A stretch of DNA of 64,000 nt from Plasmodiophora brassicae (Eukaryota). Of this stretch, positions 1,411 through 54,538 are shown piece by piece. How positions within the stretch are numbered: the stretch's first letter is position 1; each line of letters begins with the position of its first letter. The translations under genes were made by a program, and so were the position numbers. The notes under the pieces are model-generated. The model was not told the origin of the DNA, did no database searches, and saw only the letters and a list, made by a program, of their open reading frames with translations. The stretch is from NCBI GenBank assembly GCA_036867785.1, contig CP145411.1:1302001-1366000 (forward strand), written 5' to 3'.

Positions 1411-1680
1411 ACGGATGATGGCAAGGTCACTGCGACCGTGACGCTACTGGGTGCCAGACCGACTGGATACTGTCTCGACTGTGACTCACGCCAAAAATAG
1501 CTGCATCACACTGCATCCCGTGCCCCGACGCCGTCTATCTAGTAAGTATCTGCTTACCCTAACGTACCCACGTCAGATTCTATTTCGTATTACATTTGTA
1601 CATAACGGTCTCGACGTTTACGCCTGCGGTCCGCCGCTGGGTGTACGCGCCAGAGTTGTCGGCTTCCTCGGACTTGTCAC

Positions 1681-10520: not shown

Positions 10521-11797
10521 TACTGTATATGGGGTTTACAAGGCTGGGACATGTTAGACAGTCTGACGCAGTGTTTATTGAGATTGGGGAAACAACGGCA
10601 GCAACCCGATATCATTATTGAATACGTTTGTCAACGGTCGTTTCATCGAATGGATTATTCAGCTTGTTGTTATGCTCCTGGAGAATTCCACTGCCGGTAA
10701 ACGACGGGCAAGGGTGCCAGATCATCCGATGAGAAGCCTCTGGCACCCGAAACAGCTCGTCAGGAACAGGCTCCACGACGCTGACGAACAGCTTTCAATT
10801 GATGCACCCTGTAATTTAGACATGATCGGTACTTGACAATGTGGAGGCTCATTAGCCACCCCTACCCATTGGCCATGGTACGAAGTTTGGATCGCTGTCG
10901 TCGTGCGCCTCAGTCACTCGATGACGTCGAATCTCCAACGACACGCAGAGAGAGAGAGAGAGAGAGTTAAGAGTTGAGACTGAGATTGAGACCGGGCCTT
11001 GGCGGGCAAACCTGCAAGTTGCGGGCTTGCCGCACTTTCCTTTGCGGTCAGGCCGACCGGCCGAGGCACTCAGTCCGCACACTCTCTTCCATCTGCTTGT
11101 GATAACCGCAAACGTGGCTTGCAGTTGCAGTGCTTCAGGAGTACGGGTCCGCCTGTACCAGGTATACATACACTCAGAATCCGAACGCTGGAACGGAGAC
11201 AATCCAATTCACCTGCCCCGCCGTTATTGATGGTTGATTGTTCGAAGATGCAGAGCGCGTATGCGATGTCTCCGAAAGATGTACACATGGATGACCAGAA
11301 TCCAAGAGAACGTAACTGTTGCACGGGAACGCCGGCATGTACTCGTACAACAGTAAGAACATCGACAACATAAAACTGAGCCGCAGCAAACATGATCATC
11401 GTCGTCGCCGTTATCATGCACGCATACAGGTCTGGTGCCGCGTCGGCATCTAACGGTTCTTGACAGCGGGCAACTTAGGACGTCTGCCTATCTTTAGAAG
11501 GCACATGAACGTTCAACAATGAATCCGGTGATGTGAAGACATCGCTCCCTTACCCATTCCGTGAGAAGTGGGTGAGCCCGTTCGACGTGCCGTCGTTTGC
11601 TGTGTCATCTTTCAGCATTCTCATACAGAGCTGGTAGGTCAGGGCATCCTGAACATATTCACGCGTCTTGAGATGTCGAGTAAGCTTCTTCTGTGCCGGG
11701 AATGCCTTGGAGTAGACGCCACACGTCGCGGTCATCGCGTTTCAAAAATGTCACAGCGCATGTCGGATTTGACCATTTGCGATGGATGAGGTAGCCG

Positions 11798-13604
11798 TGT
11801 CATGAGTCATCTCCACCACAATGACTCACGCCACTCACCTTCCGGCATCTAGCCACCTTCCGGCACCAAGCCACGTTCCGAGACCAAGGCCTTCACCAGC
11901 CGCGCCCTGGTCCTCAGTCAGCATTCTCATGTCTACTCGATACACCGCGTGATCGGTAGTCATCGCACACTGTCGTGCACCAGCGTTGTCAGGTAGTTCT
12001 CCACATTTTTTTGCGATGAACCAACCGACACGAAGGTGGAGAAAAGGGCTCCTAACCATATCCTCTTCCGCGCGATCATTGAGGTCCGACAAGCACGGCC
12101 TCTCCAACAAGCAACAGCGCGATGCACGACACGCTAGATACCCGCATGCGCCCGCTGACTCCATGCAGGATATCGTCAAGCGCCGTCATCAACACGACCC
12201 CCGGTTCAGACCGTACCATCCGCGCCGGACGCAAATCCACCGGCCGGTACCCGACATCATCGGGGAGACTTTCATCCACATGGAAGTCGCTCTTCCGGCA
12301 CAACAACCGGCACCATTCCAGCCGTCGCCCCCGTTCCGCATTCACCGTACTGGGTACCTTTGCCCGCGAATCTCCCGAGGTTCCACGAGTTCTATTGCTC
12401 AACTTCCAGGCGCAACTGTCTACAAGCGCAGATCTTCCGTCAGCCACATCTGCATGCACGTCGTTCACGATCCCTAGTCAACGGCGCCTCTTACGACCCT
12501 CCTGCCCTGGGTAGAGTTTTCTACAAAGTCTTCTCCAGCGGCATTACCGGCTCCGCGCCACCCTCATCATCCGCATCAATCGGTCTCAGCCGTCTCCGGC
12601 GCTGAACATCCCAACGTATATGGCAACGACATCGCCATCGTCCTCGGTAACGACATCACCGACGGTCCTACCGGCTCCACGCCACCCTCATCATCCGCAT
12701 CAATCGGTCTCAGCCGTCTCCGGCGCTGAACATCCCAACGTATATGGCAACGATATCGCCATCGTCCATGGTAACGACATCACCGACGGTCCTACCGGCT
12801 CCACGCCACCCTCATCATCTGTATCAATCGGTCTCATCGACCTCCACTCAACGACTTCAACCGGCTCCTCGCCACCCACATCATCCGCATCAATCAGTCT
12901 CAGCCCAGGAATGTGCCACTCCGGCACTGAACGTCCCAGCGTATATGGCAACGTCATCGGCATCGCCCACGGTAACGACATCACCGACTGCCATCGAACA
13001 GACCTAGCGGCATCACCGCCACGAATGCACATCCACTCGTTTTCTTGACGTCCACGGCATTGATATCGCCGCCCAAGCGCGGACAAGCAAATTTACACTC
13101 AACAATGGCCCAGAAGTGTGCCATCTCCGACACTGAACGTGTCAACATCCAGGTCCGAAGCAGCTCCCGACACTTCTCTCACCCGCAACTCCAGAACCCT
13201 GTCACAGATTCTGCGAGTCCGAAACAAATATGAGCCGCGTCTCCAGCCAGATCGCACAGTTCTCAAGTTGCGAGCCAGCCCAATCACATCAAGCCGCACA
13301 TCACGCGCACCATCAAGATTCACTTGACCCGCAACCTCATCAAGCCGCTCATCACGCGCACCTTCCACCCCCACATCCCTTTTTGGCGGGGGATGATGTC
13401 ATGAGTCATCTCCACCACAATGACTCACGCCACTCACCTTCCGGCATCTAGCCACCTTCCGGCACCAAGCCACGTTCCGAGACCAAGGCCTTCACCAGCC
13501 GCGCCCTGGTCCTCAGTCAGCATTCTCATGTCTACTCGATACACCGCGTGATCGGTAGTCATCGCACACTGTCGTGCACCAGCGTTGTCAGGTAGTTCTC
13601 CACA
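11798..13604 (+). mobile_element. Non-autonomous LTR retrotransposon (TRIM/LARD-like), 1807 bp
   Basis: Identical 208-bp LTRs (11798-12005, 13397-13604) with TG...CA ends, 5-bp TSD AGCCG, and a purine-rich tract GGCGGGGGATGA before the 3' LTR. No recognisable gag/pol. Confidence 0.93.
12548..12990 (+). repeat. About 123-bp tandem repeat (about 3 imperfect units) inside the LTR element
   Basis: Repeated CCGGCTCC..CCACCCTCATCATCCGCATCAATCGGTCTCAGCC..GTATATGGCAACGA..GGTAACGACATCACCGAC. Confidence 0.85.
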
Positions 13605-13758
13605 AGCCGCGCGGCGGGACAGAAAAAGAACGTCGTATCTCGCCAAAAACTACTGGGGTATTGTTTTGGAGAGGGTACGGCGCGGTGCGGGAAATAATGA
13701 GACGCGACGGAGCCCCCTATGCAGGCAGTTATAACTAGGCCCCCTGAATCCTGTCAAC

Positions 13759-13828
13759 TGTAGACCGGACCGCCAACTAGGCCACGAGAGCAGCTGCTCT
13801 CGTGGCCTAGTTGGCGGTCCGGTCTACA
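13759..13828. mobile_element. 70-bp perfect palindrome with TGT...ACA ends and CAAC direct flanks (micro-MITE)
   Basis: 35-bp arms with no spacer (centre CAG|CTG). CAAC at 13755-13758 and 13829-13832. Confidence 0.75.
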
Positions 13829-14067
13829 CAACGCGGCAAGAGCGTTGGTCGAAGGCAGCGCAGGGAATGTCGCGGCAACTCAATGCTGGCGAGGAGAGTA
13901 ACGCAGTGAGGGGTTATAGTAAACGACCGGTCCCAAATTTATCTGGAGCACATGGAGGCTCTGAAGATGTAAGAATCTGTTTGGACGGGCTAGTTGGCCT
14001 GACGACTAGACAATGGTCCTGACACGTATAGTGTATTTGGTCGACGTCGACGTACTGTAGTCATTTA

Positions 14068-28693: not shown

Positions 28694-29039
28694 TACGTTG
28701 TGTGTGTGTGTTTGTACATATATATGAATGGTTGCACCTGTCATGGTCTGCCGAGCGCCTGCCTCAACCAGGTGATGGTGCGCGGGATCGTCGCTGGCCG
28801 TGTGGTGGTGGGGCGGCCGCAGGGCACTGGTCACTGGGCCACTGGGTCGGTCCGCTGCGCAAGACGTCGGCGGGAAGTCCGCCCCGGGGCGCGGTCGTGG
28901 CGGTGGTGGGCCGCAGCCGCACTCGCAGGGTGGTGCCATCCATCCGTCCATCTATTACTGGATCGCTGCGTCCCCTTGGCCCCCTCGATGCGCGGCGCCC
29001 CTCGCTGACATGCGCCTGCACCCACCACGCGTGACCGAC

Positions 29040-30334
29040 ATGGGCGACGACCCGGAAGGCAGGCCGGCTGCGCACGGCGACATTGATCCCATACTGGTGC
29101 AGGCGCTCGGCAACGACCGCGACCGCCCGCTCCTGATGCAGTTCGAGGCGCAGGTCGAGGCGTTCCTGCGCGACCCCAACCAGGACCGCGTCATGTTCCC
29201 GCCCATGTCGTCCTACCATCGTCTGCTGCTGCACAAGGTCGCCGACCTGTACCGGATCGAGCACCCATCGTTGCGCACGCCCGACGGCCAGCGCCACCTG
29301 GTCCTGGTCAAGCTCGACCAGTCGTCCATGTCGGTACCGGACGCGTCGTATCCTGCCCCTCCGTTGCTGAACGCCATCCCACAGACCTGACCTGCGCCTC
29401 TGCGACCTGGCCGTGCCACCTGCGGCGCCGGCGAACGCGACATCGGCCGGCGCCGTTGCCCCGGCACCGGTCCGCATCATGAGGCGGCAACCTGGCCCGT
29501 CCGCGTCGGGTGTCCCGTCATCGGCCTCCAGGACAGGCTCGACCGGCGACGCCGCCGTCGACACATCGCTACAGGTACGTCGTATGGGGCGACCACCGCC
29601 GCGTGTGTGCTGATGAACGGTGTCGCCGCCGCTCTGCCACGTAGACCCGAGAGGAGGCGTACGCGCGCGCCCGTGCCAAACTGTTCAACCTGGACGACGG
29701 CGCCGCTGACGACGACGACGACGACGACGGCCGTGCCGATCTGTACGACGACGGCGACGAGGACCTCCCGGTCGTCGATGACGAGGACCAGGACCTGTAC
29801 CGACGCAACGTCGTCCCGTTCAGGAGCGTGTCGTCGGGGTACGCGCCGCCCGTGCCGCCGTACGAGGCGGCAGGGCCGTACTGGCCGCCGTCGTCGTCCA
29901 TGCCCAGGCAGGCGGCGGCGGCGGCGGGCCCGTACGCGCCCCTCCAGGCCGACCAGCTCTTCATCAACGAATCCGTCGTCGACGTCGACACCGACTGGGC
30001 GGAACAGAAGCGACCCGACGCCGACTCGTTCACGTGTACGTTTGCTGGCGTCGGCGGCAAATCGCTGGCGTGTGTGCGTGTGCCGATGCTGACCGTGCGT
30101 TGCGGTTGTCCAGTCTGCACGAGCATGCTGGAGGTGTACGATCTGCCGGTCGGCGCGAGGAACTACCAGATCGACATGCTGCTGGACGACCTGAAGCAGC
30201 GCCCGTGCACGCTGCGGTGGCTGTCGGACGGGCGCGTCATTGCCGTGTTCGGCAGCGCTCGCGCCGCCCTTGACGCCATGCAGAGCACGTCGAGCGCGAC
30301 CTACAAGCTGCGACCGTGGTCGGGCGGCACCTAA
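29040..30334 (+). CDS. R3H + SUZ domain RNA-binding protein with R3HCC1-like C-terminal domain, multi-exon
   Basis: FPPMSSYHRLLLHKVADLYRIEH (R3H), REEAYARARAKLF (SUZ), MLEVYDLP..LRWLSDGRVIAVFGS. Confidence 0.8.
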
Positions 30335-30459: not shown

Positions 30460-32324
30460 TCAGTGCTGGGGCTGGCGGCGCTTGACGCTCTTGAACTTGG
30501 CGGTCAGCGGCCCGTAGTCGCCCGTGTACTTGCCGGCGAACGAGATCTCCTGGTCGCACTCCCAGTCGACGCGCTGGATCCAGGTGCCGATCAGGATCTT
30601 GAACAGGGCCAGGCCGACGCCCGCGCTGTACAGGGCGCAGCCGAACCGGGCCGTCTGTGGCGCCGGGTCGTGGGCGGCGTCGACGAACCCGAACGTGAAG
30701 ACCTGCGACTTGAGCGACGGGTTGTCCAGGAAGCGCCGCGCGTTGAACTGGCCGGCCGCCTCCCCGAAGACGGCGTCGTCGCGCAGGCAGAGCGGCAGGG
30801 CGGCGCAGATCAGGTCGCCCTTGCGCACCTGGTACAGGGGGCCGCCGGTGCTGGGCACCTGCAGGTCCTTCATGGCCTTCTTGAAGATGATGGTTGGGCG
30901 CAGGAAGAACCGCTGCCACTCGTAGGCGAACGACTCCAGCAGCGGGTACCGGTCGACCGTGTCGAAGCGCAGCGGGTCGTTGCCGATCTCCCGGCGCAGG
31001 TCGTCGAGCGTGGACCGCTGCTCGGACAGCATGGCGATGGCGGACGCCAGCGGCAGGCCGATGCCCGCGATGCCGTTGAACTGGATCAGGAACTGGAGCC
31101 ACCGGTCCAGGTCGTCGGTCGTGTACTCCAACGCCAGCGCCATCTTCCTGTACGGCTCGTACAGGTCCGAGTGCCGGATGATGTCCAGGCCCTCCTCGGA
31201 CAGCGCCTTGGAGTGCGACGCCGCCAACTTGAGCGTGCAGGCCACCTGAGCAACCGGGCGCGCACCCGGTCAGTTCGGGGGCAGGAGCGGCACCCAGCGA
31301 GTCGCGGCGACCGACCGTGCCCAGCAGGCCGCCCAGCCAGTTGCTCGTCTGCAGGTCGCTGACCACGTCGGGAATGTACGTCGTCATGGCCTTCAGGCTG
31401 TGCAATCACCGGCGCGGCGCGGGCATCAACAGCCTGGTGCGGCTACCGGTACAGCGCGCGGCCCGTACCTCGGCGGCGTCGTGTCCAGCAACCACTTGAA
31501 CATGAACTGGCCGGCGAACTTGGTGGCCACGTCGCCGATCGTGTACCGGTCCGGGTGGCGCAGCAGGGCCGGCAGGAAGTCGTCGTAGACCATCTGCTGC
31601 GACTGCCGCAGCGCGTCCTCGACGTGCCCGAACCGGCTGTGCATCAGGGCGACCGTGTACGCCCGGTCCAGCTTGTGCCCGTTGGCGTCGCTGGCCACCA
31701 GCGACGGCATGGCCTGCTTCACCAGGGTCGCGGGGACGCCCAGCGGCCCGAACCTGCACCGACAGACGTCAGCAACCGCCAGGCGACCACGACAGCATCG
31801 GGGAGGCGGCGGTCGTCGCACCGTTTGAAGTCTTCGCGGTCGAGGTCGGCCGACGGGCTCCCCAGGAAGAACTTGGCGGACGTGTGATCCGTCAGGACGA
31901 CGACGGGCAGGCCAATGTGCATGCGGAAGACGGGGGCGCCACCGGCGGCCGCCCGCCCGTCAATGAACGTGCCGATCAGGTTGGTGGCCCAGCGCACGAC
32001 GTCGATGGCGGGCAGCGGGTCGAGCGGGCCCGCCCACGACGCCAGGTACCGGGTCACACGAACGAGGCGCGTCTCGGCGTTGGCGGGTTCGACCACGACG
32101 GGTGCGGGTTCGCCAGGCGCGTGCTCCTGGTCGTGGGCCCCGCCGCTGCGCTCCGGGACGGGCCCAGGTGCGGGTATGCCTCGCACCTGGGCCGGCGCCG
32201 GCTGCTTCGAGGCCGGCTTGAACGCCGGCTTGCTGCTGTCGTCTTTCTTGCCCAGGTGGTGGTGCTCCTGGTCGGTCGCATGGCCCTGCTTGTCCTCGTT
32301 GACGGCGAACGCGTCGTCTGGCAT
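30460..32324 (-). CDS. Cytochrome P450 resembling CYP74 clan (AOS/HPL/DES/EAS-like), 4 exons (about 32324-31822, 31753-31469, 31397-31317, 31245-30460)
   Basis: VFRMHIG..VVVLTD, I-helix QFNGIAG, YEWQRF (ExxR), VRKGDLI..LCLRDDAVF, FNARRF, and a heme loop FTFG-(16 aa)-C. Confidence 0.72.
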
Positions 32325-32672: not shown

Positions 32673-35600
32673 TCAGATGGTTCCGTTGGCCACGTTGGTG
32701 ACGACCAGGGGCATCAGGCGCGCCGCTGCCGACCCGACGACGACGGGGACCTGGGTCGGCCCGACGGCGGCGCCGTCATCGGCCATGATCGTGTCCTGCC
32801 TGTTGAGGGACCCCTTGAACAGCACGAAGGTCAGCAGCGGGACGTGCTGGAGGAAGGCGGCGTTGTAGGCGATGCCAAAGATGGTGTACTGGACCCAGGC
32901 GCGGGACGTGGCGTCGTCAAAGTAGATGCCGTACCAGAGGATGGTAAAGACGCAGGCGCCGATCAGCGCGTAGACGACCATGTAGGCGAGCGAGTGGATC
33001 ACGACGCCACGATTGGCGGCCGCGTACGCCCGGTCCATGTCGGCGGCGCGGTCCCGCTCCAGGACCGTGCCGGGGGCGGGCGGACGTCGCGTGGTCGCCT
33101 TGTCGATGTCGACGTCGCCCTGGTACGACGACAGCGGCTTCTTGAGGTACAGGCCGGTGCGGAACCGGTACAGGGAGGTGCGCGGGAACAGGACGTCGGC
33201 GCCAAAGTGTCGGGCCCAGGCCTGCTCGCTGGCGACCGCCTGCCGATGGTGCAGGTAGAACAGGTAGGTGATGGCGTGCTGGGCGGGGACCATGATCAGG
33301 GCGGTGCAGACGGTGGCCCCCAGCCACTGCTGCCAGGTCGTGTACTGGTACCGGCCGAACAGGGCCGCCAGGACCATGTTGGCCAGGACGCTGAACGACA
33401 GGACCAGGACGCGCTGCGGCCGCGACATGAAGTTGTCGTGGTGGAAGAAGATGGTCACGAACATGTGGTGGAGTTTCCACCAGAGCAGGCCGCGGCCGAG
33501 CGCCGACCGGTCCGCCTTGGCGGACAGGGCCGACCCGAGCACCATCTCGACGCCCAGGCGCTGGTTCGGGCGCTGCAGGAGCGTGCCCCGGTGCAGGTCG
33601 CCGTCGACGACGCACTCGACCGGGATCGTGAACCTGGACGCCGGCGCGTTGTCCGGCTCGACGAGCACGTCGATGCAGGTGGTCGCCGCCGGCACGAGCT
33701 GCGCGACGACCGTGTCGAAGATGATGTCGCGCTTGCGCCCCTTCTTCCGGTCCGACACGGTCTGCACGACGCTGTTCGCCCCGCAGGCGATGGTCACGCG
33801 GCACGCCTGGCAGTCGACGCCCTTGAGCTTGCGGATGCGCGTGTACAGGGCGCCCTGCTGCGTCACCAGGTTGCGGCCCTGCTGGAACAGGGCGCGGCGG
33901 TGCTCGCTGCGGACGCGCTCGTCCAGGCGGTACCCGAGGGCGGTGCCCACGACCAGGAACGCGAGCACGGCGCCGACCAGCTCCAGGACCGGGCGGCTGA
34001 CCAGGTCGACGTGGCCCGCCAGGAGTTCGCGCCGCGACCCCGGATCCGGCGTGCGCACGTCGGGCACGAACGCCTGCAGCTCCACCGAGAAGTCGGTCAG
34101 GTGCGTGCACGCGCACTGGATCGCACCCCCGGTCGACGTCGTCGTGTTGTCGGCGCCGACCGTGACGCACCCGGCGTCCGTCCAGCGGTCGGCGCCCGGG
34201 TCGTACGACACGCAGACGGCGCGCCGGTCGCACCGGGCGCCGAACCAGCCGGGCGGGCACGTGCCGCCGGCGCCGAGCCCAGAGCAGTTCCCGGTGCAGG
34301 GCGCCGTCTCCGGGCACGCCACGCTGACGACGATCGGCGCCGACAGGTTGTGGACGGCGACGGGCGCGCTCGTGCCCGCCGCGTACACGTTCAGCGTCGT
34401 GGCCGCCGAGCAGACGGTCGCATTCGTCGCGTTCGTCGTCGTCGCGTTGTGCGGCTGCACGCGCCACTGCACGGCGCTGACGCCGGCGCCCGCCCCGATC
34501 ACGCCCGGCACCGACGGCAGCGCGTACGCGCCCGGCAGCGCGATCGGGCGCGCGCCCAGGGCGCGCTGCGTCGTCACCGTGAACAGGTCGCCGTCGGTGG
34601 CCGACACCGGGTCCTGGCCGACGACCTGTGTGCGCGTCAGACACACACACGCACACGCACACACGCACCGGCCGGCCGCGCACGCACCTGATCGCCCAGC
34701 AGGATCGGGCCGATGCCGTTGACGACGTCGAGGACGTCCGGGATCAGGTCGTGGCGGGCGGCGCCGGCCAGCGCCCGGTAAACGGCGCCGGCCGTCGCCG
34801 CCACGGCCGGCATCGCCGCGGCCGACGCCGCCGACGCGTTCATGGCGTGCCTCGTGATGCGCAGCGCCGTCCTGGCCGCCGCCGTCGTCAGGTTGGCGCC
34901 CGTGGCGATCGCCGCCGTCGTCACGGCCAGCGCCTGGACCTCGTCGGGCGACAACGCCGCCGCCGACGACGACAGCGACGACGAGGCGGCGGCGGTCGCG
35001 TTCTGCGCCATGGCCGCCAGCAGGAACGTGGCGATCCGGGTGCGTTGGGCGCCGGTCGCGCCCGGGTCGCCCAGCAGCGCCGCCCCGGTCAGCACCAGCG
35101 ACTGGAGGGCGGCGGCGTCCCGGGCGCGGGCGGCGCCGGCCACGCCCGCGGCGATCGACGCGAACAGCGCCGCCACGGTCTGGTTCCTCGGCAGGACCGT
35201 CACGTTCGCCGTCGCCAGCGCCGACGCGCCGCCGCCGGTCATGGCGCGGACCGCGACCCGGGCGCCGCCGTCGCCGGGCATCGCCGGCAGCACCGTCGTG
35301 ATGCAATTGCTGAGCGAGGGCGCCCCGCCGCCCAGCAGCGCCGTTGTCGTCGTGCCGTCGGCGGAGACGAGCGCGAACTGGTAGGCCAGCGGCGAGAGGG
35401 TGTCGGGCGACGACCAGCCGTTGGCGCAGATCGTGAAGGGGTCGGCCAGGGCGCGCCCCGCCTCCGGGTACACGGTGACCGTGCCGCGCGTCGGCGGCGT
35501 GCACGTCCGGAACGTGGTGGACGACGCGCCCAGCACGCCGGTGCCGTTCCACAGCTGGATGGCGCACGTGTACCAGGTGGACGGGTGCAGGGCGCCCGGG

Positions 35601-38031
35601 CGCACCTTGGCGATCGGCGCGTCCGCCGGCGTCAGCATGGCGTCCGCGCCCATCACCGCCCCGTTGCACTGCCATCGCAGGCGCGTCGACGCCGCCATCG
35701 ACCCGGACACGGCGCCCAGCATCGTCATCGGGCTGTCGGCGTCGACGCAGGCCTGCGGGACGGCGCGCACCGACACCGACGCCGCGTCCACGTCGCCGCC
35801 GCTACCGCCGCACACGGTCACCGTCGTGGACGCCACCGCCCACCGATCGTCGTCGCCGGCGCCGCCCGTCGTGACGTTGACGCGCACGGCCAGGTCGACG
35901 CAGGCGCCGGCGACGCGGAAGAAGCCGGGCGGGAACGCGAGCAGGGGCGTGCGCAGCAGGCTGACGGCGCCGGACGGGTCGCAGGGCGCGCCGGTGCCGC
36001 CCATCGTGCACGCCCACGCGTACTGGAGCGGGGCGGCGCGCGCGTCCGGGTCGAACGAGGCCGACGCGTCCAGGGCGATGCGGGCGCCGGACACGGTCTG
36101 CCCGCCGCCGGCGATGACGGCGACCAGCGGCGAGCGCACGACCCGGACGACGACCGAGGCCGAGGCGACGACGCCCGACACGGTCGCCTGCACCGCGAAC
36201 ACGTACACGGCGCCGGCCCGCAGCATGCCCGCCTTGACCTGGCAGACCGGCGTCGTCGTCGACCAGGCCATCGTCGAGAGCGACGGCGGCGTCGCCATCG
36301 CCGTCGTCATCGCCCAGGCGTACTCGTACGGGTCGTCGGCGGGGGTGGTTGACGGGAGCGCGTCCGTCGTGCACGGCGTCGACGGCGTCACCCGGCTGAC
36401 CAGACGGAGCGGGTCGCCCGCCCGCACCGTCAGCGTCGTGCCGGCGCCGTCGATCGACACGAGCGGGACGGGGCGGCCCAGGACCTGGACGGTCCAGGTC
36501 GTCGACGACGAGGACGGCGTTGCGGTCGCGTCGGCGCCCACCACCGTCAGCGTCACCGTGACGTTCGTGCCGGGCGCCCGGGGCCACATTTGCATGGCGG
36601 CGCCCTGCGATTCGATGTGGACGCCGGGCAGCGTCGACGACCAGTAGTAGGCGGCGACGAGGCCGGTGGACCCGGCGCCCGACAGGCGCAACGCGTCGCA
36701 GGGGCCGATCGCCGTCGGCCCGTTGATGACGGCCTGCAGGCTGGGTCGAGGCGGCGCCGGCCCGCTGCTCGTGCCGACGTCGTCCTGCGCCGGCGCCGTC
36801 AGGTTGCGCACGTCGACGAACAGGGCCATGGTGACGTTGGCGCCCGGCCGCCCGGGCACGAAGGTCAGCACGGCGGACGACGACTTCGCCGACGACCAGA
36901 CGCCGACGAAGGCGGCGATGGACATGGCGTCGAGCGGGGCGTTGAACGGGCAGGTCGCCGTGACGGGGTCGCAGATGGACATCCAGGAGCCGGGCGGGGC
37001 GACCCAGGCCGGCACGGTCGCCTGCATGCGGATCTGGGTGCCCGGCGCCGCCTCCAGGCGCAGCACGACGGGGCCGGCGATCGGGGCGGCCACCGCCTTG
37101 ATCATGTAGTAGCCGAGGGCGTCCACTGAGCGGCACAGCGACCGCGTCCCGTTCGCCAGCGGGATCGGCGTCAGCGGGCAGGCCTTGGACGTGCGCAGCG
37201 GGGACACCATCGGCACTGGACAGATGGGGGCGGGTGCCCGGTCAGCAGTACTGTCCGGGCGGTCCCACCGCCCGACGTACCGAATCGCAGGGACAGGGTC
37301 CAGTGCTCGACCTCGGCGTCGGCCGGCGTGTACCGTATCGTGGCGAGGCGCTGCGACGCTTGGAACGCGGGCGCCAGCGCGGTCAGCTGCGTCGTGGCCC
37401 CCGTCGCCGGGTCGCTGACCAGGACGACCGGGGCGACCGTCGTCGCCGCCGACGACGACGTCAGCGTGAGCACGGGCAGGTACTGAGGCGGGGCTTCCAG
37501 CGCCATGGTGCACGCCGACGACCCGGACACGATCGGCAACGTCAACGACGGGTCGGCGAACGACAGCGAGCGCACGTCCGCACAGGTCAGCGACAGCGGC
37601 AGCGACAGCGGCAGCGGCACGGCCATCTGTACCGGGGGCGGCGTCGGCGCGGGCGACTGAACCTGCGGCGTCGGCGCGGGCGACAGGGCCTGCGGCGTTG
37701 GCGAGGGCGACAGGGCCTGCGGCGTTGGCGAGGGCGACTGGACCTTCGGCGTCGGCGAGGGTGACACCTTCGGCGTCGGCGAAGGTGACACCTGCGGCGT
37801 CGGCGAAGGTGACACCTGCGGCGTCGGCGAAGGTGACACCTGCGGCGTCGGCGAAGGTGACACCTGGGGCGTCGGCGAGGGCGACAGGACCTGGGGCGTC
37901 GGCGCGGGCGACGGGATCTGCGGCGCCGACGTTGTTAGGGTGGGCAACGGCTGCGCGGCCGACAGAGCATGCCGGCAGGACAGGAGGAGGGCGACGACGA
38001 CGGCCGCAACGTTCGAGCGCCGCGATCGCAT
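32673..38031 (-). CDS. Polycystin-1/PKDREJ-like receptor: signal peptide, Pro/Ser/Thr repeats, REJ, GAIN/GPS, several TM helices (introns about 37271-37127 and 34687-34626)
   Basis: LDASASFDPD..YAWAC, PPTRGTVTVYPEAGRAL..FTI..GWS, CACTHLTDF (GPS), SRPQRVLVL..ANMVLAALF. Confidence 0.8.
37640..37920 (-). repeat. 21/24-bp coding tandem repeat encoding (V/L)SPSPTPQ
   Basis: Units such as CGGCGTCGGCGAAGGTGACAC, about 11 copies. Confidence 0.9.
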
Positions 38032-38056
38032 GGGTCGAACAAGATTCCTCCTAGGT

Positions 38057-38233: not shown

Positions 38234-39742
38234 CTAATGGGGCGACGGGACGGCCGGCGAGTTCGCAGGGCCAGCAGGCGGCGCCGCCTCGCCTGTACCG
38301 GAGTCCGCCTCCCTGTGGTCCTCCTCGACCTCGACCTCCAGCGACGGGGCCGGCGGCCTCGGATGGCGACGCCGAGGGATCCTGTACAGGCCCATGCGCA
38401 GCTTGATGTAGGCGAGCGTTGCCGATGCGACGTCGACACCGGTGGCCGCCTCCAGGCCCTCGAACCCGGGCGACGAGTTGATCTCGCAGATCTTGTACCT
38501 ATGGAGGCGAACGGGGGGCACCATTAGTCGCTGTCGGACGGCCCCAAGCCAACGCGGATCGGGGATGGGCGCCGGCACTTACGTGTCCTTGTCGATGAGC
38601 AGGTCGATGCCGGCGACGTCCAATCCGGTTAGACGGGTCGCCTCCAGAACGAGCCACTCGACCTGCGGCGATATCGTCACCGGGCGTACGCTGCCGCCTT
38701 GATGGACGTTGGCTTTGAATCCTGAGCAGCCACGCCGCCCGATCGTCAGGTAAACGCGTTGACCGAACACACGCGCGCCACCACTAGCCGCACCTTTGTT
38801 GGCAACCCTCATCATGCAGGTGACGACGCGGCCGCCAACGACGAGGACGCGCAGGTCGCGGCCCTTGCTGTGCGCGAGGAACTCCTGAAAGATGAGCGGC
38901 TCCTTCGGGTCGAGCAGGTCGACGAGGTCCTCCAGGTTCTCGTGGTCCTTGACCAGGATGATGCCCTTGCCCTGCGACCCGGACGACTTCTTCACGATGA
39001 TCGGGTACTCGAACTGCGACTCGACCACCTTGAGGTTGATCGGGAACTTGGCCAGCAGCGTCTTGGCGATGGGCAGGCCGTGCGCCGCCATCACCTGCAT
39101 GGTCTGCAGCTTGTCCCTGGAGATCTCGATGCTCTGGCACCCGTTCAGCACGGTGACGCCCATCTTCTCGATCTGCCGGACGACGGCCAGCCCAAAGTAG
39201 TCGACGGCGGCGCCGGTGCGCACCAGGACGATGTCGGGCATCTCCACGTTGTACCCGTCGTACAGGATGTCCTCGAGGCCGTCCTTCGTCGCCAGCAACT
39301 CGAACTTGCCGGTGGCGACGACCTTCAGGACGATGTTGCGCGCGAACGACGCCTCCCACAGGCGCCGCTTGACGTACCCGGTGACGCCGTCGTCGCGACA
39401 CAGGCACCAGACGGTCAGGGCGGGCTCGTCGAGCGTCTGCCCGTAGAAGGCGGCGTCCTCGGCGTTCAGGAACAGGACGGACGGGCCGCAGTGCCGCGGG
39501 CGCAGGCCGAACCTCGTGAAGTGGGCCGGCACCCTGACGGGGATCGTGCCGAACGCCGCGTACGTGTCGGTGGCCGGGGCCGCCTCCACCACGGTCGTCG
39601 GCAGGCGACCCAGCGGCGAATTGCCGGTCTTGACCCAGACGACGGGATCGCGCGCGCTGTCGTCGGCGACCACGGACACGGCCGGCGACGGCACCATGCT
39701 GGTCACCGCCGACGACAGCGCCTCGTGAACGTCATCGTCCAT
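38234..39742 (-). CDS. RimK-family ATP-grasp ligase (2 introns)
   Basis: PDIVLVRTG, ISRDKLQT, YPIIVKKSSGSQGKGI, IFQEFL..GRDLRVLVVGG, ANVHQGG, LDVAGIDLL, CEINSSPGFEGLE. Confidence 0.9.
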
Positions 39743-40312
39743 CAACGTGCGCCTGCGTCTGGCGTATAGGTCGGTCGGTCGGTCGGCCGCCCACCACCCC
39801 ACCACCCGGGATCAGAACGGCGTCGTCGCCCGCGGGCCGACCCTTCGGCGGCGATCGGGGCCCCCCTCCCGCAACTGCAGTCGACGACCACTGCCGTCTG
39901 CTGACTCTGACGACCCGCGGGACTGGGCCGGGGGAGGACCGGGCGCCGTCCGCAACCCGCAAGTCCGCCGCCGCATCCGCATCCCGTCCGGCCTGCTATT
40001 ATACGCTGTGCCATCTATACGTCCTAGACAACATGGATCGACTGTGGGGAAACGCCTTCAGGCAAGATGGCGTGCTGCCGGATCACTGGTTGGAGGGGGG
40101 GATGAGACCCGGATCCGATCAGTGCTCGGATCGTGAAGCGAGGGGACATGGTGACCAGCGGTGGCGACCGTGACGTCACGGGCGGCGACTGGCACTCGGC
40201 CCGTCAGCGCGGAAGCCCACCGACCCCGTTGACGTCATTCGCGATTCGAGCTATTGCTACCGACACACACGCACACGCGCGTAGGAGGCACACCGCGGTG
40301 CGCGCGAGCGAC

Positions 40313-45201: not shown

Positions 45202-46449
45202 TCAGGTCAGTGGCACGCCGCACACGTTCGTCGGGTCCGCCTGGCACGCCGGGCAGGCGAGCGCGTGCGAATCGCGCGCCTGCCGCTGGAACCAGGGGCG
45301 CGCGCATTCCCAATGGAGCACGTCCCAGCACGGGTGCAGGATCGCCAGGTGCTGCCCAGGCCCGATGTGCGACAGTTTCTGCCGGCAGACGGCGCACGCC
45401 CCGTCCCCGGTGGGCACCGTCGACGTCAGCGTTAGCTGGTCCATCAGCGCGTGCAACCGCCGAGACGCGGTCAGCGTCAGCACGCCATCGTCGCCGTCGT
45501 CGTCCTCAGCGTCGCTGATGGCGGCCTCTCCTGCGTCATCGGCCTCCATGCTGCCGTAGAGTAGGTCGGTAGCAAGATCGACCTCCGGGTCGTTCAGGCA
45601 CCCGATGCGATCCAGCAATTCGTGAGGCAGTTCTCCCTGAGGACCGCGCTCGATCAACGGGTCCAACGCGAACGGGAAGTCGAGCAGCAGCGGCACCAGG
45701 TGATAGTTTCGGCGGCGGACGGCCTCGTAGAGCACGGACCCGTGCCTGCGCGTCGCCTTGCATGATACCTGAAGGCGTGCCAGGACGTGGACGGCGCGCT
45801 TGGCCCGTACCTTGTCGGGCAGACCAGCCACAGCCATTGGCAATGACGTGTTCCCCGACAGGACGTCGTGGCCGTGGTCGTAGAACAGCTTCATGGCCAG
45901 GCGAATGGGCTGGGTGGTCGGGTCGGCATCCAGGGCGTTGACCAGGGCTCTGGGTCGCCTCGCATCACTGAGGACGACGTCGACAGAGGCAAAGGCCCGG
46001 TGCCAGCGGATATCAGGGCCGTTCAGCGTATCACGAAGAGCGCCCATTACCGGGTCGGGGATGTCAAACAGGGCACCGTTGAAGTGTCGCAGGAGGGCAT
46101 GGCTCTCCCGGGCCGTTAACGTGAACTGATCATCCGGGCCGATCCACGAGACATCGCCAGTCAAACGGACCAGAGTGCACCTGGCCGTCACGTCCTGTCG
46201 AATCATCCAGGCTTCCAGATCATCGCTTGTCATGCGGATTTCGCCGAGAGAGTCGTCGCCAGGTAATGCGGTTTCGTTGACAGCAGGCAGCTCGACCCGA
46301 TCCGAGTGCATTCGCCGCTTCGCAATCGGCAGCGAGGCATCAACGCAGGACAAGGAACGTCCGTGCTTCCCTCTGGCACCGTCGACGACGCATCGGACGT
46401 CCAGAACAAACACGACAAAGAGAAAGCCGAACGCACCGATCGGTACCAT
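45202..46449 (-). CDS. Secreted RING-finger family, copy 1
   Basis: Hydrophobic N-terminus, basic motif, shared DDQFTLTAR.S.ALLRHFN domain, ankyrin-like LYEAV..NYHLVPLLL, and C-terminal RING. Confidence 0.85.
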   Translation of the reverse strand: MVPIGAFGFLFVVFVLDVRCVVDGARGKHGRSLSCVDASLPIAKRRMHSDRVELPAVNETALPGDDSLGEIRMTSDDLEAWMIRQDVTARCTLVRLTGDVSWIGPDDQFTLTARESHALLRHFNGALFDIPDPVMGALRDTLNGPDIRWHRAFASVDVVLSDARRPRALVNALDADPTTQPIRLAMKLFYDHGHDVLSGNTSLPMAVAGLPDKVRAKRAVHVLARLQVSCKATRRHGSVLYEAVRRRNYHLVPLLLDFPFALDPLIERGPQGELPHELLDRIGCLNDPEVDLATDLLYGSMEADDAGEAAISDAEDDDGDDGVLTLTASRRLHALMDQLTLTSTVPTGDGACAVCRQKLSHIGPGQHLAILHPCWDVLHWECARPWFQRQARDSHALACPACQADPTNVCGVPLT

Positions 46450-46836
46450 GTCGATTGATTTGCGGGGCCGGTGTGCGGCTCACGGCGACCCCGCTGCAGC
46501 AGCGGCGAACTGCGCCGCGGATCGCACTTTTCTGCGCAACGCGCTTTGTACGATGACACCTCGTACGTTACAGTACGTGCCGGTGCACAACAGGCGTCAC
46601 CGCATCAACTATTGCACCATGGCAGGTCGCGAGTTGAACTCTGGTGCGCCCCGGTAGCCCGTTGACGCTAAACGTGCGTCTTGCATGGCGCGCATTGCCA
46701 GGATTCAGGTCGCACCTCTTTCCATGTGTGGTGCGGAGAAATACGTCATTACAATCATGTCAGACTCCAATGGAACGTATCGTCTGGGCGGTATGTAGAC
46801 AGCAATACCGTGAAGAGGGTCAGGCGTGTACGCACG

Positions 46837-48412
46837 CTAAGCCGAGGGCCCAGGGCGTAATGCCTTCAAGACCGATTGCGGAAGGTTCCCCTTTTCTGAC
46901 AGAAACGCATCCGGTTTGGGGATGTCGACGTCTTTGGAATCGGGGTATTCTACGTTAAGCGCCGATGCATACACCTGGCAGAGCAGTTGCTTGCTCTTGA
47001 TCGTCCGGGTGACAAAGTTGCCCCACGTGCAGCCACCAATGACGCTCGCACCTAATGATGACCTAGACGACCAGCGGAATTAGGGGAATACATAAATGGG
47101 TTGATCATGCTCAACGAGACCAACCCAAGTGATACGAAGATCAGACTGCTGGGCTTAAACCTGCTATACTTGGTCGACATCGGCTTTCCCCGGGCCAGCG
47201 CCTTGATGTTCTGTGCAGCGATGTGCGCCATCTTTGTTGCCAGGAACGTGAACTCATATTTATCCGCATTGCTGTTGCCCCAAACAATCAGCGATCCGCC
47301 GCCGTCTGACAATGACGGCGATTACCAGCAATCGCCGATAGCGAACACGTGTGTCTGGCCTTCGACCTGAAGGTACTCATTGACTTTGATGTGGCCCGTT
47401 TCACTGACTGGTATTGTGTGCTCAAAACAGGAATTGTTGGTCTGGACGAGCAAACCGTCAGTCGGCCAGGTGCCGTGTCACACCCTGCAATGCTCATCCG
47501 GTACTCGAGCATATCCTATACAGAAGAAGATCCGGTCGACTTCGAGGATTTCCCCGTTGCTTAATGGGACTTTGACCGGCTTCGCGTCCGCCTCAACGTC
47601 GGGGCCGGGCCGTGGTGCACATTCTGCTGCGACACCAGTCTTGACAACGATTCCCATGCTCTCCATCGTTGCCTTTATCCTGCTACTCAGCTTATCGGGA
47701 TAATCGGCACCGATCAGTTTCACGCTTCGCGATACCAACGTGACCTGTGTGCGCTGAACGTCAGCAGGGAACGTCACGTGCACATCGCGGCGACGACACC
47801 GATTTCTGAGGATAATGAGCTTTGATCTCCCCAGCCAGTTCACATCCGGCTGGACCTCCACCAACGACGAGAACACGTTCGTCAGGTGCCAAAGCCTGGA
47901 CCGCTTTGGAGTACATGATACGCGCGTCCTGATACGCTGTCGGGGTGGTGTCCTCTGGGAACGCGTAGCTTGATCCAGTGGCGATGACGACGAAGTCAGC
48001 TGCGATAGCCGTGTCATTCCCTGTCAACTATAGGTACAATGCTTTAAATATTTACTGGACCGAAGGTGCTGTATAGAAATGGAACAATGTGCCCAACCTG
48101 GATGGAGGGTCCGTCAACTCGTGCCACTTCGCCAGATACCACGGTTCCGTTCTTGAGGGCTTTCGCATATGGAGGAGTGACGTTATGGGCGAAATCCGGC
48201 ATGACGGCCGCTCGTAGGGCGCCAACCGTGTGCATGAAGTAGTCCTTGCGGTCGATGACGAACACGTTGAAGTCGTTATCGAGCAACTGAGCCACTGTGA
48301 TACCGCCGTACCTGCCACCCATATATATCAGGTCGGCCCAGCACAGAGCTGTTAACAAGTAGACGCGTCCCAACCCGCCACCGACGACGAGTACCGTCTT
48401 CTTGTCAGCCAT
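46837..48412 (-). CDS. AIF-like/FSP1 (AMID) FAD-dependent NAD(P)H oxidoreductase, multi-exon; 3' end approximate
   Basis: VLVVGGG..YGG, DFVVIATGSSY, VLVVGGGPAGCELAGEIK, HVFAIGD, AHIAAQNI. Confidence 0.85.
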
Positions 48413-49118
48413 CGTGCCTGTAGACTAGAGGTCTTCGTCAACCGCCGTCGTTTGCCAGTCGAAACCTCCTGAAACTGGCTGCACCTGGTCACAAGGTCAA
48501 GACGATTCAGGGCACCTTTCGCTGCTGTGCCGCACTGGTGTACTGTCGCATCCCATTAGTTCCTGGTCGCGACGCTGTTACAACCGCCTTCATGCGCGCG
48601 ACCTCGATCGTCCCTGTAGGCGATACGTGGTTCGACTTCGCGCGGCACACCTGCTCGCCATACGCCGATCCCTGTGCTTGCCTCGATCCAGCATTAATAT
48701 TTGACCGGCGACTCATTAGCAATATCGTCGAAACGGGCATAAGTGTCGGCCAACGTCCTGTAATGTTCACTGCGAAGGCAATGGCCGCTGTTATTTGTGT
48801 AGTACGAACTATTGTCAATATGCAAACGGACGCCCTGTTCCTTCGAACGCAGTCGTCAGCCGCCGAAAATTGTCAGTGTACGGCTTGCACGAGGCCCATG
48901 GTTAAACTCCCAACGTTTACGATGATTCCCGCGTCTCGACTTGCTCCAACGCGGCCACGTCCGGCAGGGCTTGAACCTGTGGCCAACTGCCCAAGTGCCA
49001 ATTGTCCACTACCAACAGGTCCTCAGTCTACGTAAACCATTGCCGACGAATACTCGAGTACATTCAAACCAGCATTAGGTTCCAGACAGTGTATTGAGTG
49101 TGCAGGTCGCTGGGGCCA

Positions 49119-50357
49119 TCACGCTTTGGCCGGGTCGGCTCGGCACAGTGGACACGAGAAAGGTTGCGCAAGACGCCCTTGTCGTTTGAACCAGGGGCGC
49201 AAGCATCCCCAGTGGAACACGTGGCGACACAGTTGCAGAATGGTTAGGCACTGTTCCGTGCCAAACAGCCTCTCCTGACAGATAGCACATTCTGCACTGC
49301 TGCCCGACGATATAGATGGCGTAAACGTTATCCTGTCGGCGGCAATCCGCAATCGGTGTGATGGAGTCAGAGGGCCCTCAACGTCATCACCGTCGCTGTT
49401 GACACTCGTTGCCCCATCTTGCTCGTCTTCATCATCGTCCGTTCCGTCTGCTCCATCAGGCATCTTGAAACAAACCAGCAAGTCTTGAACAAATTCGGCC
49501 TCGCGGTCGACGTCGAAATCACTCGTGCGCTCTAGTAGTTCGATCGGGTGTTCGCCATCAGGACCTCGCTCATTCCATGGATTCAACGATAACGGCTGGT
49601 CAAGCAGCAATGGGACCAGGTGATAATTCCGACAGCGTATGGCTTCGTACAGCATGGACCCGTGCTCTCGAGACGCTTTGCACGATGCTTGCAGGCGTAC
49701 CAGAACGTGAATGGCGCGCTTGGCACGATGTCTATCACTCAGACGCGCCACCGCGATTGGCAATGACGTGTTTCCCGTTAGGACGTCGTGGCCATGCTCG
49801 TAGAAGAGCTGTATGACCAGGCGAATAGGTTGCGTGCTTGGGTCAACATCCAGGGCGTTGATCAGAGTACCGGGTCGAGAGGCATCATTTACACTGACAT
49901 CCAGAGCAGCGAAGGCACGATGCCAATGGACATCCTGATCGTCCAGCGTCGCTTCCAGGGATTCCATTGCCCAGTCAGGGATGTCGAAAAGGTCTTTGTT
50001 GAAGTAACGCAGGAGGGCCTGGCTCTGCCGAGCAGTGAGCGTGAAGCGATCATCGGGCGTGATCCACGAGCTTTCGCCAGTCCGTCGTGCTACAGCGCAC
50101 TTCACAGCAACCTCCTGACGAATTTCCCATTCTTCCAGATCGTCTTCGGTCATGGGTATCTCATCGAGGCCGCCGGCATCGTCAGGCAGACCGGTTTCGT
50201 TGACAACAGGCAGGTCGACCAGGTCCGGGCGCATCCGCTTCAGATTGGTGGGCAGATGATCATCGGCGCCGGAAAGGCCGCGCTTCACGGCTGCACCGGT
50301 GACGACGTCCAGAGCAGCCACAGCAAGCAGAACGACGAGAGTTCCTGCCACCACCAT
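49119..50357 (-). CDS. Secreted RING-H2 family, copy 2
   Basis: Same architecture as copy 1. RING CAICQE..CRHVFHWGCLRPWF..CPLC. Confidence 0.87.
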   Translation of the reverse strand: MVVAGTLVVLLAVAALDVVTGAAVKRGLSGADDHLPTNLKRMRPDLVDLPVVNETGLPDDAGGLDEIPMTEDDLEEWEIRQEVAVKCAVARRTGESSWITPDDRFTLTARQSQALLRYFNKDLFDIPDWAMESLEATLDDQDVHWHRAFAALDVSVNDASRPGTLINALDVDPSTQPIRLVIQLFYEHGHDVLTGNTSLPIAVARLSDRHRAKRAIHVLVRLQASCKASREHGSMLYEAIRCRNYHLVPLLLDQPLSLNPWNERGPDGEHPIELLERTSDFDVDREAEFVQDLLVCFKMPDGADGTDDDEDEQDGATSVNSDGDDVEGPLTPSHRLRIAADRITFTPSISSGSSAECAICQERLFGTEQCLTILQLCRHVFHWGCLRPWFKRQGRLAQPFSCPLCRADPAKA

Positions 50358-50709
50358 GTTCGTCTAGGTAGGTAGGTCGCGTTGGTTGTCTCGGCCAATG
50401 CTGCGCGAGGGCACTCTGCGGGGCGGTGCGCGCACTGGTCAACAAAGCCCGATCCGGCGAATTGCGACTGTGCACAGAATTCTCCGAAACGCCGACGAGA
50501 TCAAAAATAGCCCCCGTCCACTGACTTGGCAAATGAACCGGATGAAACGGGAATTTGTTGAGGCCACCGGCCTGCGTTGGCAATATGCTCTGTCTGAGTT
50601 GAGCACCTGGCCACCGGTCGCTTTATTGCAGTCGAACTTGAGGTGATTCCTGTCATTGCCCGCCCCCCCAGAACATCCAAGACGAGCACAGCAGCTACCT
50701 ACATAGCTA

Positions 50710-51330
50710 ATGGGCGCGCCAGGGCATGGATGGCGCGCTTGGCACTCATTTCATCGCCCAAACATGCCACGCCCAATGGTGCACTCCTATCTCAAGTCAG
50801 GACGACGTAGACATGCTGGGAGAACAGCTGCATCAACCAGGCTAACAGGTTGCGTCTAGAACGACATCCAGAGCAGCGAGTGTCCGATGTCAGCAGGCAT
50901 CCGGGCCGGCACGCATCACATACGGAGAGGCCATTTACTGGTCGGGAATGTCGAGCAGGTCGTTGTTGAAACAACGCGCGCAGGAGCGCATGGTGGCGCT
51001 GACGTCGGGCGCCAGTGAACGTGAACTGGTCATCTGAGCGGATCTGAGACGTATTGCCAGTCGATCGGCCATGCATTATGCACTGCACCTGGTCGCCACA
51101 ACTTATCAAGCCCCCCCCCCCCCCCCCCCCCCAGGCTTGCGCTTCTCCACTCTAATCATGTTCAAATTACGAGCGCCAGGCAGTACTGCGGTTCGTTGAT
51201 AGCGGGGCAGGTCGAGAGTCTCCAGGAGCACCCGCTTCTCATTCGTCAGACTCGTCTCGCTGACGGGTGCGCGCGCGCTCGCACAGTTTGCGACATCGAA
51301 GGCAGCGACAGCGATCTGAGCCGTGAATAG
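50710..51330 (-). pseudogene. Degenerate truncated copy of the secreted RING family
   Basis: Fragments EKRVLLETLDLP, RSTGNTSQIRSDDQFTFT, LMQLFSQHVYVVLT and AKRAIHALAR lie in shifting frames. A poly-C run at about 51111-51132 interrupts it. Confidence 0.75.
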
Positions 51331-51481
51331 TGGATACGCTCGGCAGTAGTTGTTCGCCGGGCGGCTGTCTGCCAATGTCCAGATATAAACCGATCCGGGG
51401 AACTGCGCCCCCCGTTCTAGAAATAGCCGTGCAAACCGGGCCCAGTCGACCTCATGCGCACGGGGTTCCAGAGTGAGGAGA

Positions 51482-52777
51482 ATGGCATCGCCGGTCGCAC
51501 TGACATTAGCGCTGACGTCTGTCCTGGCTGCTCTGGGATTCGTCGGCGGGGCGAGGGTGAAGCGCTGGCGAGCGTCCGATGACGGCGGCCCGTCGCAGAA
51601 GTCGAAACGGTTGCGCGTAGACCGCCTCGAGCTGCCTGTCGTCGATGAACCTCCACTGCCTTGCGATTGTGGCCTGAACGTAATCCGCATGACTCAGCAT
51701 GAGCAGCAGGTCTGGGAGACCCGCCAGGAATTGGCGCTCAGGTGTGGCCTCATCCGATCGACTGTCGTTGCCGCATGGGTCACGCGGGACGACCAGTTTA
51801 CATTCACCGCCCGGCAGAGCCAGGCTCTCTTGCGACACTTCAATAAGGACCTACTGGACATCCCTGATCATTCAATGGACACCCTGCATGCACGTCTCGC
51901 TGGCCCGGACGTTTTATGGCATCGGGCCTTCGCTTCGCTCAGTGTCGTCCTGCACGACGCGCGAAGACCCGGGACCCTGATCAATGCCCTGGATATGAAC
52001 CCGAACACGCAGCCTGTTCGTCTTGTCATGCAGCTATTCTATGAGCACGCCCATGACGTTGTAACGGGAAATACCTCGCTGGCAATAGCTGTGGCTAGCC
52101 TGCAGGACAAGAGACGAGCCATGCGCGCCGTCCATGTCTTGGCGCGCCTGCATGCGCCCTGTAAAACGACACCGAAACACGGATCCATGCTGATCGAAGC
52201 GATCTTGTCGGGAAACTACAACCTGGTCCCGCTGCTACTTGGCGTCCCGTTCCGGTTGGATCCGCTGGTCGAACGTGGGCCTGGTGGGATGCTGCCGTAC
52301 GACCTACTGACTTTGACGGCCGACCCAGACGAGCCCGATGTCATCCGAGCCATCCTCACGTTCCATCGGGTCCTGTCGCCCGATGATGAAGAGAGCAGCG
52401 ACGATGATGAGGACAATTATTTAATTGATGAGCGGGAGGGCACTTACGACGGCGACCACTCAGATGACCCGGGCGCTGACGCCGTCGCACCCGGGCACTG
52501 CTGGACGATTCCGCGATCGTTGCGACGGCTGCAAAAGTTGATGGACGTGATCACCGTAACGTCGATCTTGCCGCCCGGTCCGGACGCGTGTGCCATATGC
52601 CTGGAGAAATTCGCGGTTGCCTTACCTGGTCAGCGTCACCTGGCTGTCCTTGGTTTCTGTAGCCATGTGTTCCACTGGGGTTGTATCCGTCCCTGGTTCA
52701 TTCGACAGTCCCGACACGCGACGCGGTTCACCTGCCCCATGTGTCGAGCCGACCCGTCCGACGACTCCGACGTGTAA
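51482..52777 (+). CDS. Secreted RING-H2 family, copy 3
   Basis: MASPVALTLALTSVLAALG signal, KRWR-x-KSKRLR, RING CAICLE..CSHVFHWGC..CPMC. Confidence 0.87.
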   Translation: MASPVALTLALTSVLAALGFVGGARVKRWRASDDGGPSQKSKRLRVDRLELPVVDEPPLPCDCGLNVIRMTQHEQQVWETRQELALRCGLIRSTVVAAWVTRDDQFTFTARQSQALLRHFNKDLLDIPDHSMDTLHARLAGPDVLWHRAFASLSVVLHDARRPGTLINALDMNPNTQPVRLVMQLFYEHAHDVVTGNTSLAIAVASLQDKRRAMRAVHVLARLHAPCKTTPKHGSMLIEAILSGNYNLVPLLLGVPFRLDPLVERGPGGMLPYDLLTLTADPDEPDVIRAILTFHRVLSPDDEESSDDDEDNYLIDEREGTYDGDHSDDPGADAVAPGHCWTIPRSLRRLQKLMDVITVTSILPPGPDACAICLEKFAVALPGQRHLAVLGFCSHVFHWGCIRPWFIRQSRHATRFTCPMCRADPSDDSDV

Positions 52778-53230
52778 ACCGGCCTCTGAGATGGCCCAAT
52801 GATTAAATGGTTCCAATGATGTGGCCGGGAAGGGCGTACAATGGAGTGGACCCAGGGTAACGTATTCGGTCACGCAGACTGGCTTACCGGAGTCCAGCCC
52901 TGCCTGGACAGCGTGCACGATCAACGACGGTCACTACGAGCGCACCGGGCGCACTTCACGAACCCACTGACGCAGATTCTGAGGGCAGCGGGGACCTTCC
53001 GGTCCGTGATTTACCGGGGTGATAGATCCCAGTGGCTTCGTGAAGTGCGTCAGTGCGTTCGTAAAAAGTGCGTCCAGTTCCTTCGTAGATTGCGCCAGTG
53101 CGTTCGTAAAAAGTGCGTTGTGGCGTCTGAGCGCGCGTGCTGCGCAACAGTCATGAACCTCCAGAAATAGCTTCGCCGTCGGTCTGCCCACTGTCCATTG
53201 CCGGCCGAGGGCCCGAGTTTGCCGCCGACC

Positions 53231-54206: not shown

Positions 54207-54238
<32 letters not shown>

Positions 54239-54538
54239 CCGTACACGCCGGTGCCGGAGGCAATGCAGCGACTACAGGACCTCATGTATGGAATAACGCT
54301 GGCGACGCCCGTGCCCTCCGACGTGGCCGACGCCTGCGCCATATGCCTGGGCAGCGTTGCAGGCGTCCTGCCTGGACGCTATCGGGCAACGCTGCCGTTG
54401 TGCGGCCACGCCTTCCACTGGGCGTGCCTCCGTCCCTGGTTCGTCCGGCAGGCCTGCCGATCCGGCCAGGCCTTCTCCTGCCCGCTGTGCCGCAACGACC
54501 CGACCGCCACCCCTTCCCGCAATCGACATCACCTCTGA
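53231..54538 (+). CDS. Secreted RING-H2 family, copy 4
   Basis: MMSRVALTALWIVAA signal, KRR-x-KRVR, RING CAICLG..CGHAFHWAC..CPLC. Confidence 0.87.

Follow-up and report, generated by a model that had tools for sequence, protein, structure and literature searches.

The hydroperoxide bicyclases and the Ectocarpus enzyme CYP5164B1 form a separate P450 clan, CYP5164, whose brown-algal members include the Ectocarpus bicyclase CYP5164A3 and CYP5164B1 itself, an epoxyalcohol synthase (PMC10813956). The same 2024 review lists under accession CEO97746.1 the bicyclase CYP50918A1 (PbHPB) of the clubroot parasite Plasmodiophora brassicae, which turns 13-HPOT into plasmodiophorols A–C (PMC12843491). In the available portions of the literature on this clan, which do not extend to the 2021 original, two bicyclases are named, there is no description of which residues direct the epoxyallylic intermediate towards ring closure, and we found no passage describing a second bicyclase-type gene in P. 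brassicae; the available part of a 2025 review on clubroot hormones (PMC12559101) mentions no parasite oxylipin P450.

The gene described here lies on contig C3 of the P. brassicae genome, in a window of 64,000 nucleotides (the whole stretch of DNA analysed; CP145411.1, positions 1,302,001–1,366,000), and the probable plant-parasitic protist to which an earlier note had attributed this DNA from its letters is thus P. brassicae. It spans positions 30460–32324 on the minus strand, the exact start-to-stop extent of a gene with four exons encoding 551 aa:

31822..32324, minus strand: exon 1, with the start codon, a low-complexity N-terminal extension of ~75 residues and, as far as SRS-1, the beginning of the P450 fold (VFR..VVVLTD); one X5 contig covers 30446–32367, and residues 1–63 of the paralog model have pLDDT <50
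31754..31821, minus strand: intron 1, 68 nt, GT-AG; position and phase the same in CYP50918A1; joint in X5, X8 and X9
31469..31753, minus strand: exon 2, from SRS-1 (the same RFGPLGV in the two paralogs) to the region of helix E
31398..31468, minus strand: intron 2, 71 nt; joint in X5, X8 and X9; position common to the paralog
31316..31397, minus strand: exon 3, the F-helix/F-G region (SRS-2/3), visibly diverged between the paralogs
31246..31315, minus strand: intron 3, 70 nt; joint in X5, X8 and X9; position common to the paralog
30460..31245, minus strand: exon 4, with the I-helix FNGIAG (Asn347), ExxR at 399–402, SRS-5 (R406-P-T408), FTFG-(16)-Cys493 and the stop codon

Many splice combinations leave the frame open, and the four-exon model was chosen among these alternatives because contigs from runs X5, X8 and X9 skip exactly the three introns listed. 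The removal of all three is seen as CT..AC joints in these runs (three of the four examined, from three studies), and a single X5 contig covers the whole coding region; in run X1 a contig is unspliced across the three introns. The runs are presumed to be RNA, a type recorded for none of them, so that the spliced joints are themselves the evidence for splicing, and contig depths in these runs cannot rank expression. Searches of the protein collection brought up the gene's own product only as an exon-1 read-through (P0010), and not as the full-length protein. Convergent with the P450 gene lies an R3H-domain gene (28776–30334, plus strand), whose intron near 30035–30114 is skipped in all four runs; one X1 contig skips this intron but retains the three of the P450 gene.

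The closest relative of the C3 protein is P0002 (CEO97746.1, UniRef100_A0A0G4IRM5), the P. brassicae protein named hydroperoxide bicyclase CYP50918A1, with 71.1% identity across 543 aligned positions (73.8% when the count starts at residue 85); a further record with the name 'hydroperoxide bicyclase', P0003, differs from P0002 at six residues. Across the genome searched (25.3 Mb, 20 contigs), P0002 is encoded letter for letter by a locus on C7, and the last exon of the C3 gene has one close relative there (71–72%), as it has one in the protein collection, P0002. A search for further paralogs with P0005, a 40%-identical relative, found the loci on C3 and C7 and, beyond these, a single match at E 0.096. 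All three introns of the C3 copy are common to the CYP50918A1 gene in position and phase, and the latter (L034) has a fourth, inside the haem-loop insertion, which is absent from the C3 copy. Between the paralogs NG86 dN/dS is 0.29 in the core and 0.31 overall, with dS ~0.6; the gene is intact and under purifying selection.

The two proteins share, besides their organism, the ExxR motif, the ARFGCALY haem segment (identical as far as ARFGCALYSAG), an identical SRS-1 and a similar disordered N-terminal extension, and their I-helices differ only conservatively around FNG(I/V)AG. In contrast, they are encoded on different contigs (C7 and C3), their haem loops hold 17 and 16 residues respectively, the F-G region has diverged, and ~29% of positions differ.

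A phmmer search with P0002 gave 116 representatives, and 94 P450 domains, near-duplicates included, were aligned. The quick tree comprised 61 rows, after 35 of the 94 had been dropped as duplicates, fragments or gappy and two outgroup rows added, while the careful mixture-model tree comprised 27 rows; the outgroup was two domains of one protein in both. Both agree in placing the C3 protein as sister to CYP50918A1 (100/100), joined next by P0005, within a 9-row clade that also holds sequences from Chrysoparadoxa, brown algae and chytrids (99/99) and a larger 15-row clade (98/100) lying apart from the plant, placozoan, hydrozoan and bacterial CYP74-clan rows; these trees leave the deep branching between the protein's clade and CYP74 unsettled. 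Grouping with two plant-type rows was rejected by the AU test (p-AU 4.65e-6 and 5.73e-5; 16 rows, LG+G4), and a recent transfer from the host plant is rejected by the tree and the AU test. Chytrids also carry members of the clan: P0006 (Podochytrium) is the third-best match to the bicyclase at 42%, and P0019 comes from Siphonaria.

This placement fits the CYP5164 clan. The brown-algal CYP5164 enzymes are in one published clan with PbHPB, and the brown-algal matches, from Nemacystus and Cladosiphon, fall in the same supported clade as the C3 protein; we infer that these matches belong to CYP5164, the named Ectocarpus enzymes being outside our set. The Nemacystus and Cladosiphon matches differ in having ~29–31% identity to the paralog and a Gln at the I-helix Asn site of the C3 protein. 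Under P450 naming practice, more than 55% identity to a named member indicates the same subfamily; judging by its identity to CYP50918A1, its sister position and the shared introns, the C3 protein is assigned to subfamily CYP50918A. The earlier note had taken the longer haem-loop insertion and CALY as signs of a new subfamily, a proposal that falls away as both are present in the 71% identical CYP50918A1, with its loop of 17 residues.

The enzyme type and its presence in P. brassicae are thus already published, and the C3 gene is a second, sister copy. Reportedly, the abstract of the 2021 paper states that the genome has two expressed CYP74-clan-related genes, one of which was expressed and assayed; if this holds, the C3 gene is presumably the other of the two, and its existence is already in print. 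Probably unassayed, the C3 gene belongs to a known enzyme type that was first described in this same organism.

The motifs on which the earlier note had dwelt are borne out by the spliced product. FNGIAG starts at residue 346, in place of the AGxxT motif, so that the acid-Thr oxygen-activation pair is absent from the I-helix and Asn347 stands instead (in the profile this Asn lines up with FNTWGG of the Arabidopsis AOS); ExxR is EWQR at 399; and FTFG at 473–476 and the CALY Cys at 493 leave 16 residues between G and C. The haem loop has 13 extra residues here, 14 in PbHPB and nine in the plant rows, and is therefore an insertion but not the nine-residue one. The motif features are not due to chance because 83 of the 94 aligned domains have the Asn and 89 have the haem Cys, in a set of rows that includes near-duplicate cluster members. 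Two haem-loop styles occur among these domains: plant-type CYP74 has WSNG-(12)-C, and the C3 protein belongs to a group with FxFG...GC. At the family level, the last exon matches Pfam p450 above the cut-off (E 5.6e-7, 29.1 bits), and its best PDB sequence matches are Arabidopsis AOS (weak, E 6.5e-4). The C3 protein is, with high confidence, predicted to be a hydroperoxide-converting, O2-independent P450. That this copy is instead decaying after duplication, or is an ordinary monooxygenase that depends on NADPH, is extremely unlikely in view of the open 551-codon frame, the spliced joints in three studies and dN/dS ~0.3, together with the retention of all catalytic motifs and the lack of an acid-Thr pair for O2 activation.

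As the earlier note had observed, the N-terminus lacks a hydrophobic anchor: over 19 residues the Kyte-Doolittle mean peaks at 0.24 within the first 100. A secreted effector is rejected on the same lack of a hydrophobic N-terminus, as judged by Kyte-Doolittle values. The enzyme probably works inside the parasite cell, because it has no signal peptide or anchor. The database name of the paralog suggests mitochondrial targeting, and the first 20 residues are net acidic in both paralogs (one basic and six acidic in the C3 copy), unlike a usual mitochondrial presequence.

With the plant CYP74 enzymes (AOS, HPL, DES and EAS) the C3 protein has in common the P450 fold, the I-helix Asn, an extended haem loop and presumed homolytic hydroperoxide chemistry. 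An AlphaFold model made for CYP50918A1, rather than for the C3 protein, has a P450 fold (pLDDT 86.6); its top six Foldseek matches are allene oxide synthase structures, and in VIA the AOS structures score Z 30.9–31.6, with rmsd 3.5–3.9 Å over ~430 residues and 14–16% identity, against 29.2 for the next P450. AOS would be the top fold match in any case, because the library of solved structures has no closer clan member. Membership of a CYP74 family implies more than 40% identity, and membership of the plant family is rejected by the 14–16% structural identity, measured on the paralog, and by the AU test, the plant enzymes also differing in their WSNG-(12)-C loop (FxFG-(16)-C in the C3 protein) and forming a separate clade. 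Of the earlier reading as a CYP74-clan-like P450, the CYP74-like character stands, but the lineage falls outside plant CYP74 (AU p ~5e-6), inside a clade of algal and chytrid relatives with a characterised bicyclase.

The description of the gene as of jasmonate-pathway type was not upheld, as the lineage lies apart from plant CYP74, bicyclases are placed in CYP5164 (PMC10813956) and the products of the paralog are plasmodiophorols A–C, not jasmonate precursors (PMC12843491). An allene oxide synthase making jasmonate precursors or mimics would agree with AOS as the nearest solved fold, with the production of AOS products besides bicyclase products in brown algae (PMC12843491) and with the conjugation of JA in vitro by a parasite GH3 (PMC12559101). 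It would also agree with the SRS-1 of the C3 protein, where the F/L toggle site, identical in both paralogs, aligns to Arg168, or with a one-residue shift to the neighbouring Phe; however, the same Phe is present in the paralog, a bicyclase, the fold match is the expected one, grouping with plant CYP74 was rejected, and the protein carries no signal peptide that would take it to host plastids. We regard this activity as very unlikely. A search for allene oxide cyclase (PF06351) gave no match in the genome, a result that is uninformative as the control genomes were equally blank.

We favour, as the probable explanation, that the C3 gene is a functional duplicate of CYP50918A1, a CYP50918A enzyme of the CYP5164 clan with bicyclase products like those of its paralog. 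A lipoxygenase, from one of three loci in the genome or from the host, would supply a fatty-acid hydroperoxide such as 13-HPOT; the ferric haem, aided by Asn347, would cleave the O–O bond homolytically; and the alkoxyl radical would rearrange to the epoxyallylic radical that all CYP74-type enzymes share. Ring closure onto the omega-3 double bond, the step presumed to form plasmodiophorols, would then yield plasmodiophorol-type bicyclic oxylipins in the C3 protein, with epoxyalcohols as side products. O2, NADPH and a reductase would not be needed.

The difference most relevant to specificity may lie in SRS-5, which reads L-R406-P-T408-I in the C3 protein and M-G-P-R-V in CYP50918A1. An ungapped alignment sets Thr408 against the Thr of PPVTAQ in the Arabidopsis AOS sequence, and a numbering offset of +27, established from F137L, makes this residue Thr389. 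The carboxyl group of the substrate is bound by Thr389 in AOS, and the peroxide is contacted by Asn321 (PMC6627107). This swap, at the site where plant AOS has its carboxylate-binding Thr, may give the C3 protein a specificity different from that of CYP50918A1. Since one or two substitutions can flip the product outcome in CYP74-type enzymes (PMC10813956) and SRS-5 differs, a different substrate or product is given a modest chance: the enzyme might use the same hydroperoxide chemistry with diverged specificity, mainly as an epoxyalcohol synthase or with a preference for other hydroperoxides (9-hydroperoxides, or those of linoleate or C20 acids), and this might be the activity that the pair had ancestrally. 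The C3 copy keeps R-P-T like its nearest outside relatives (P0005 IRPTI, P0008 LRPTI, P0007 IRPSF), where CYP50918A1 has G-P-R, and both copies have been retained at dS ~0.6. However, x-P-R is widespread in the larger family, there is almost no change in SRS-1 and the I-helix, and neither copy is more ancestral overall, because at the sites that differ between the paralogs P0005 matches the C3 protein 21 times and CYP50918A1 21 times. Diverged specificity is therefore, in our judgement, on the unlikely side, though it deserves weight, and a functional duplicate with bicyclase products remains our preferred reading. The 71% identical natural pair, differing at SRS-5, offers a ready test of the determinants of ring closure, and bears on the question of a single oxylipin or more than one in the clubroot parasite.

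The lipoxygenase search that the earlier note had in mind gave matches at three genome loci, one on C2 and two on C8. A further-reaching proposal is that the C3 product differs from that of CYP50918A1, as set by the SRS-5 swap, and that, with three lipoxygenases, one of them fused to a third hydroperoxide-type P450, the parasite has a branched oxylipin pathway draining or mimicking the host 13-HPOT/jasmonate pool in gall formation, possibly by way of an undescribed oxylipin; taken as a whole, we consider this improbable. The C3 enzyme may also divert host hydroperoxides.

The C2 locus (~157,990–161,600; L031:2990–6600, plus strand) is predicted to hold a single gene that sets a hydrophobic N-terminal stretch before a P450, a PLAT domain and a lipoxygenase with iron ligands and a C-terminal Ile, ~1,130 aa in all. 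A 719-codon open frame contains its P450, PLAT domain and lipoxygenase start; GT-AG models extend to 1,129–1,137 aa, three of the six with the full iron-ligand pattern. The P450 of this fusion has FAGTIG, with neither the I-helix Asn nor the acid-Thr pair, and is nearest to bacterial clusters by language-model features. On C8, two similar intron-containing lipoxygenase loci lie ~17 kb apart on the minus strand (939,502–940,491 and 957,473–958,473; L032 and L033), with no CYP74-like P450 found in the 10-kb stretches around them.

Fusions also occur among relatives of the bicyclase. Thirty proteins were picked from the 116 representatives (top matches and long proteins), and seven of these are fused to lipoxygenase, four to a haem peroxidase/dioxygenase domain, while nine have an acyl-CoA-binding domain; these domain partners link the wider family to hydroperoxides of fatty acids by a line of evidence separate from the paralog. 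P0016, P0019, P0023, P0036 and P0101, one of them from a chytrid record, have the order P450 – acyl-CoA-binding domain – lipoxygenase, and in other relatives the fusion partner is a haem peroxidase, patatin, C2 or hydrolase domain. Our literature search by fusion terms found no paper on P450-LOX fusions.

An oxylipin gene cluster in the window is rejected, as none of the 108 ORFs scanned there (a subset, chosen by GC pattern and length) matches an oxylipin-related family and the lipoxygenases are on C2 and C8. Directly upstream of the P450 gene is a large gene with REJ and GPS domains (32676–38050, minus strand; polycystin-like), followed by a RimK-like ATP-grasp ligase (38582–39811, minus strand; Rimk_N and RimK). 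The first part of the window (1–14000) is gene-poor and of lower GC (0.51–0.57), with a DDE_3 endonuclease ORF (9508–9975) and an HTH ORF (8434–9171) that are probably transposon remains. Four RING-finger ORFs of 414–462 aa, each with the RING at the C-terminus, lie close together at 45205–54535 and probably represent a local gene family.
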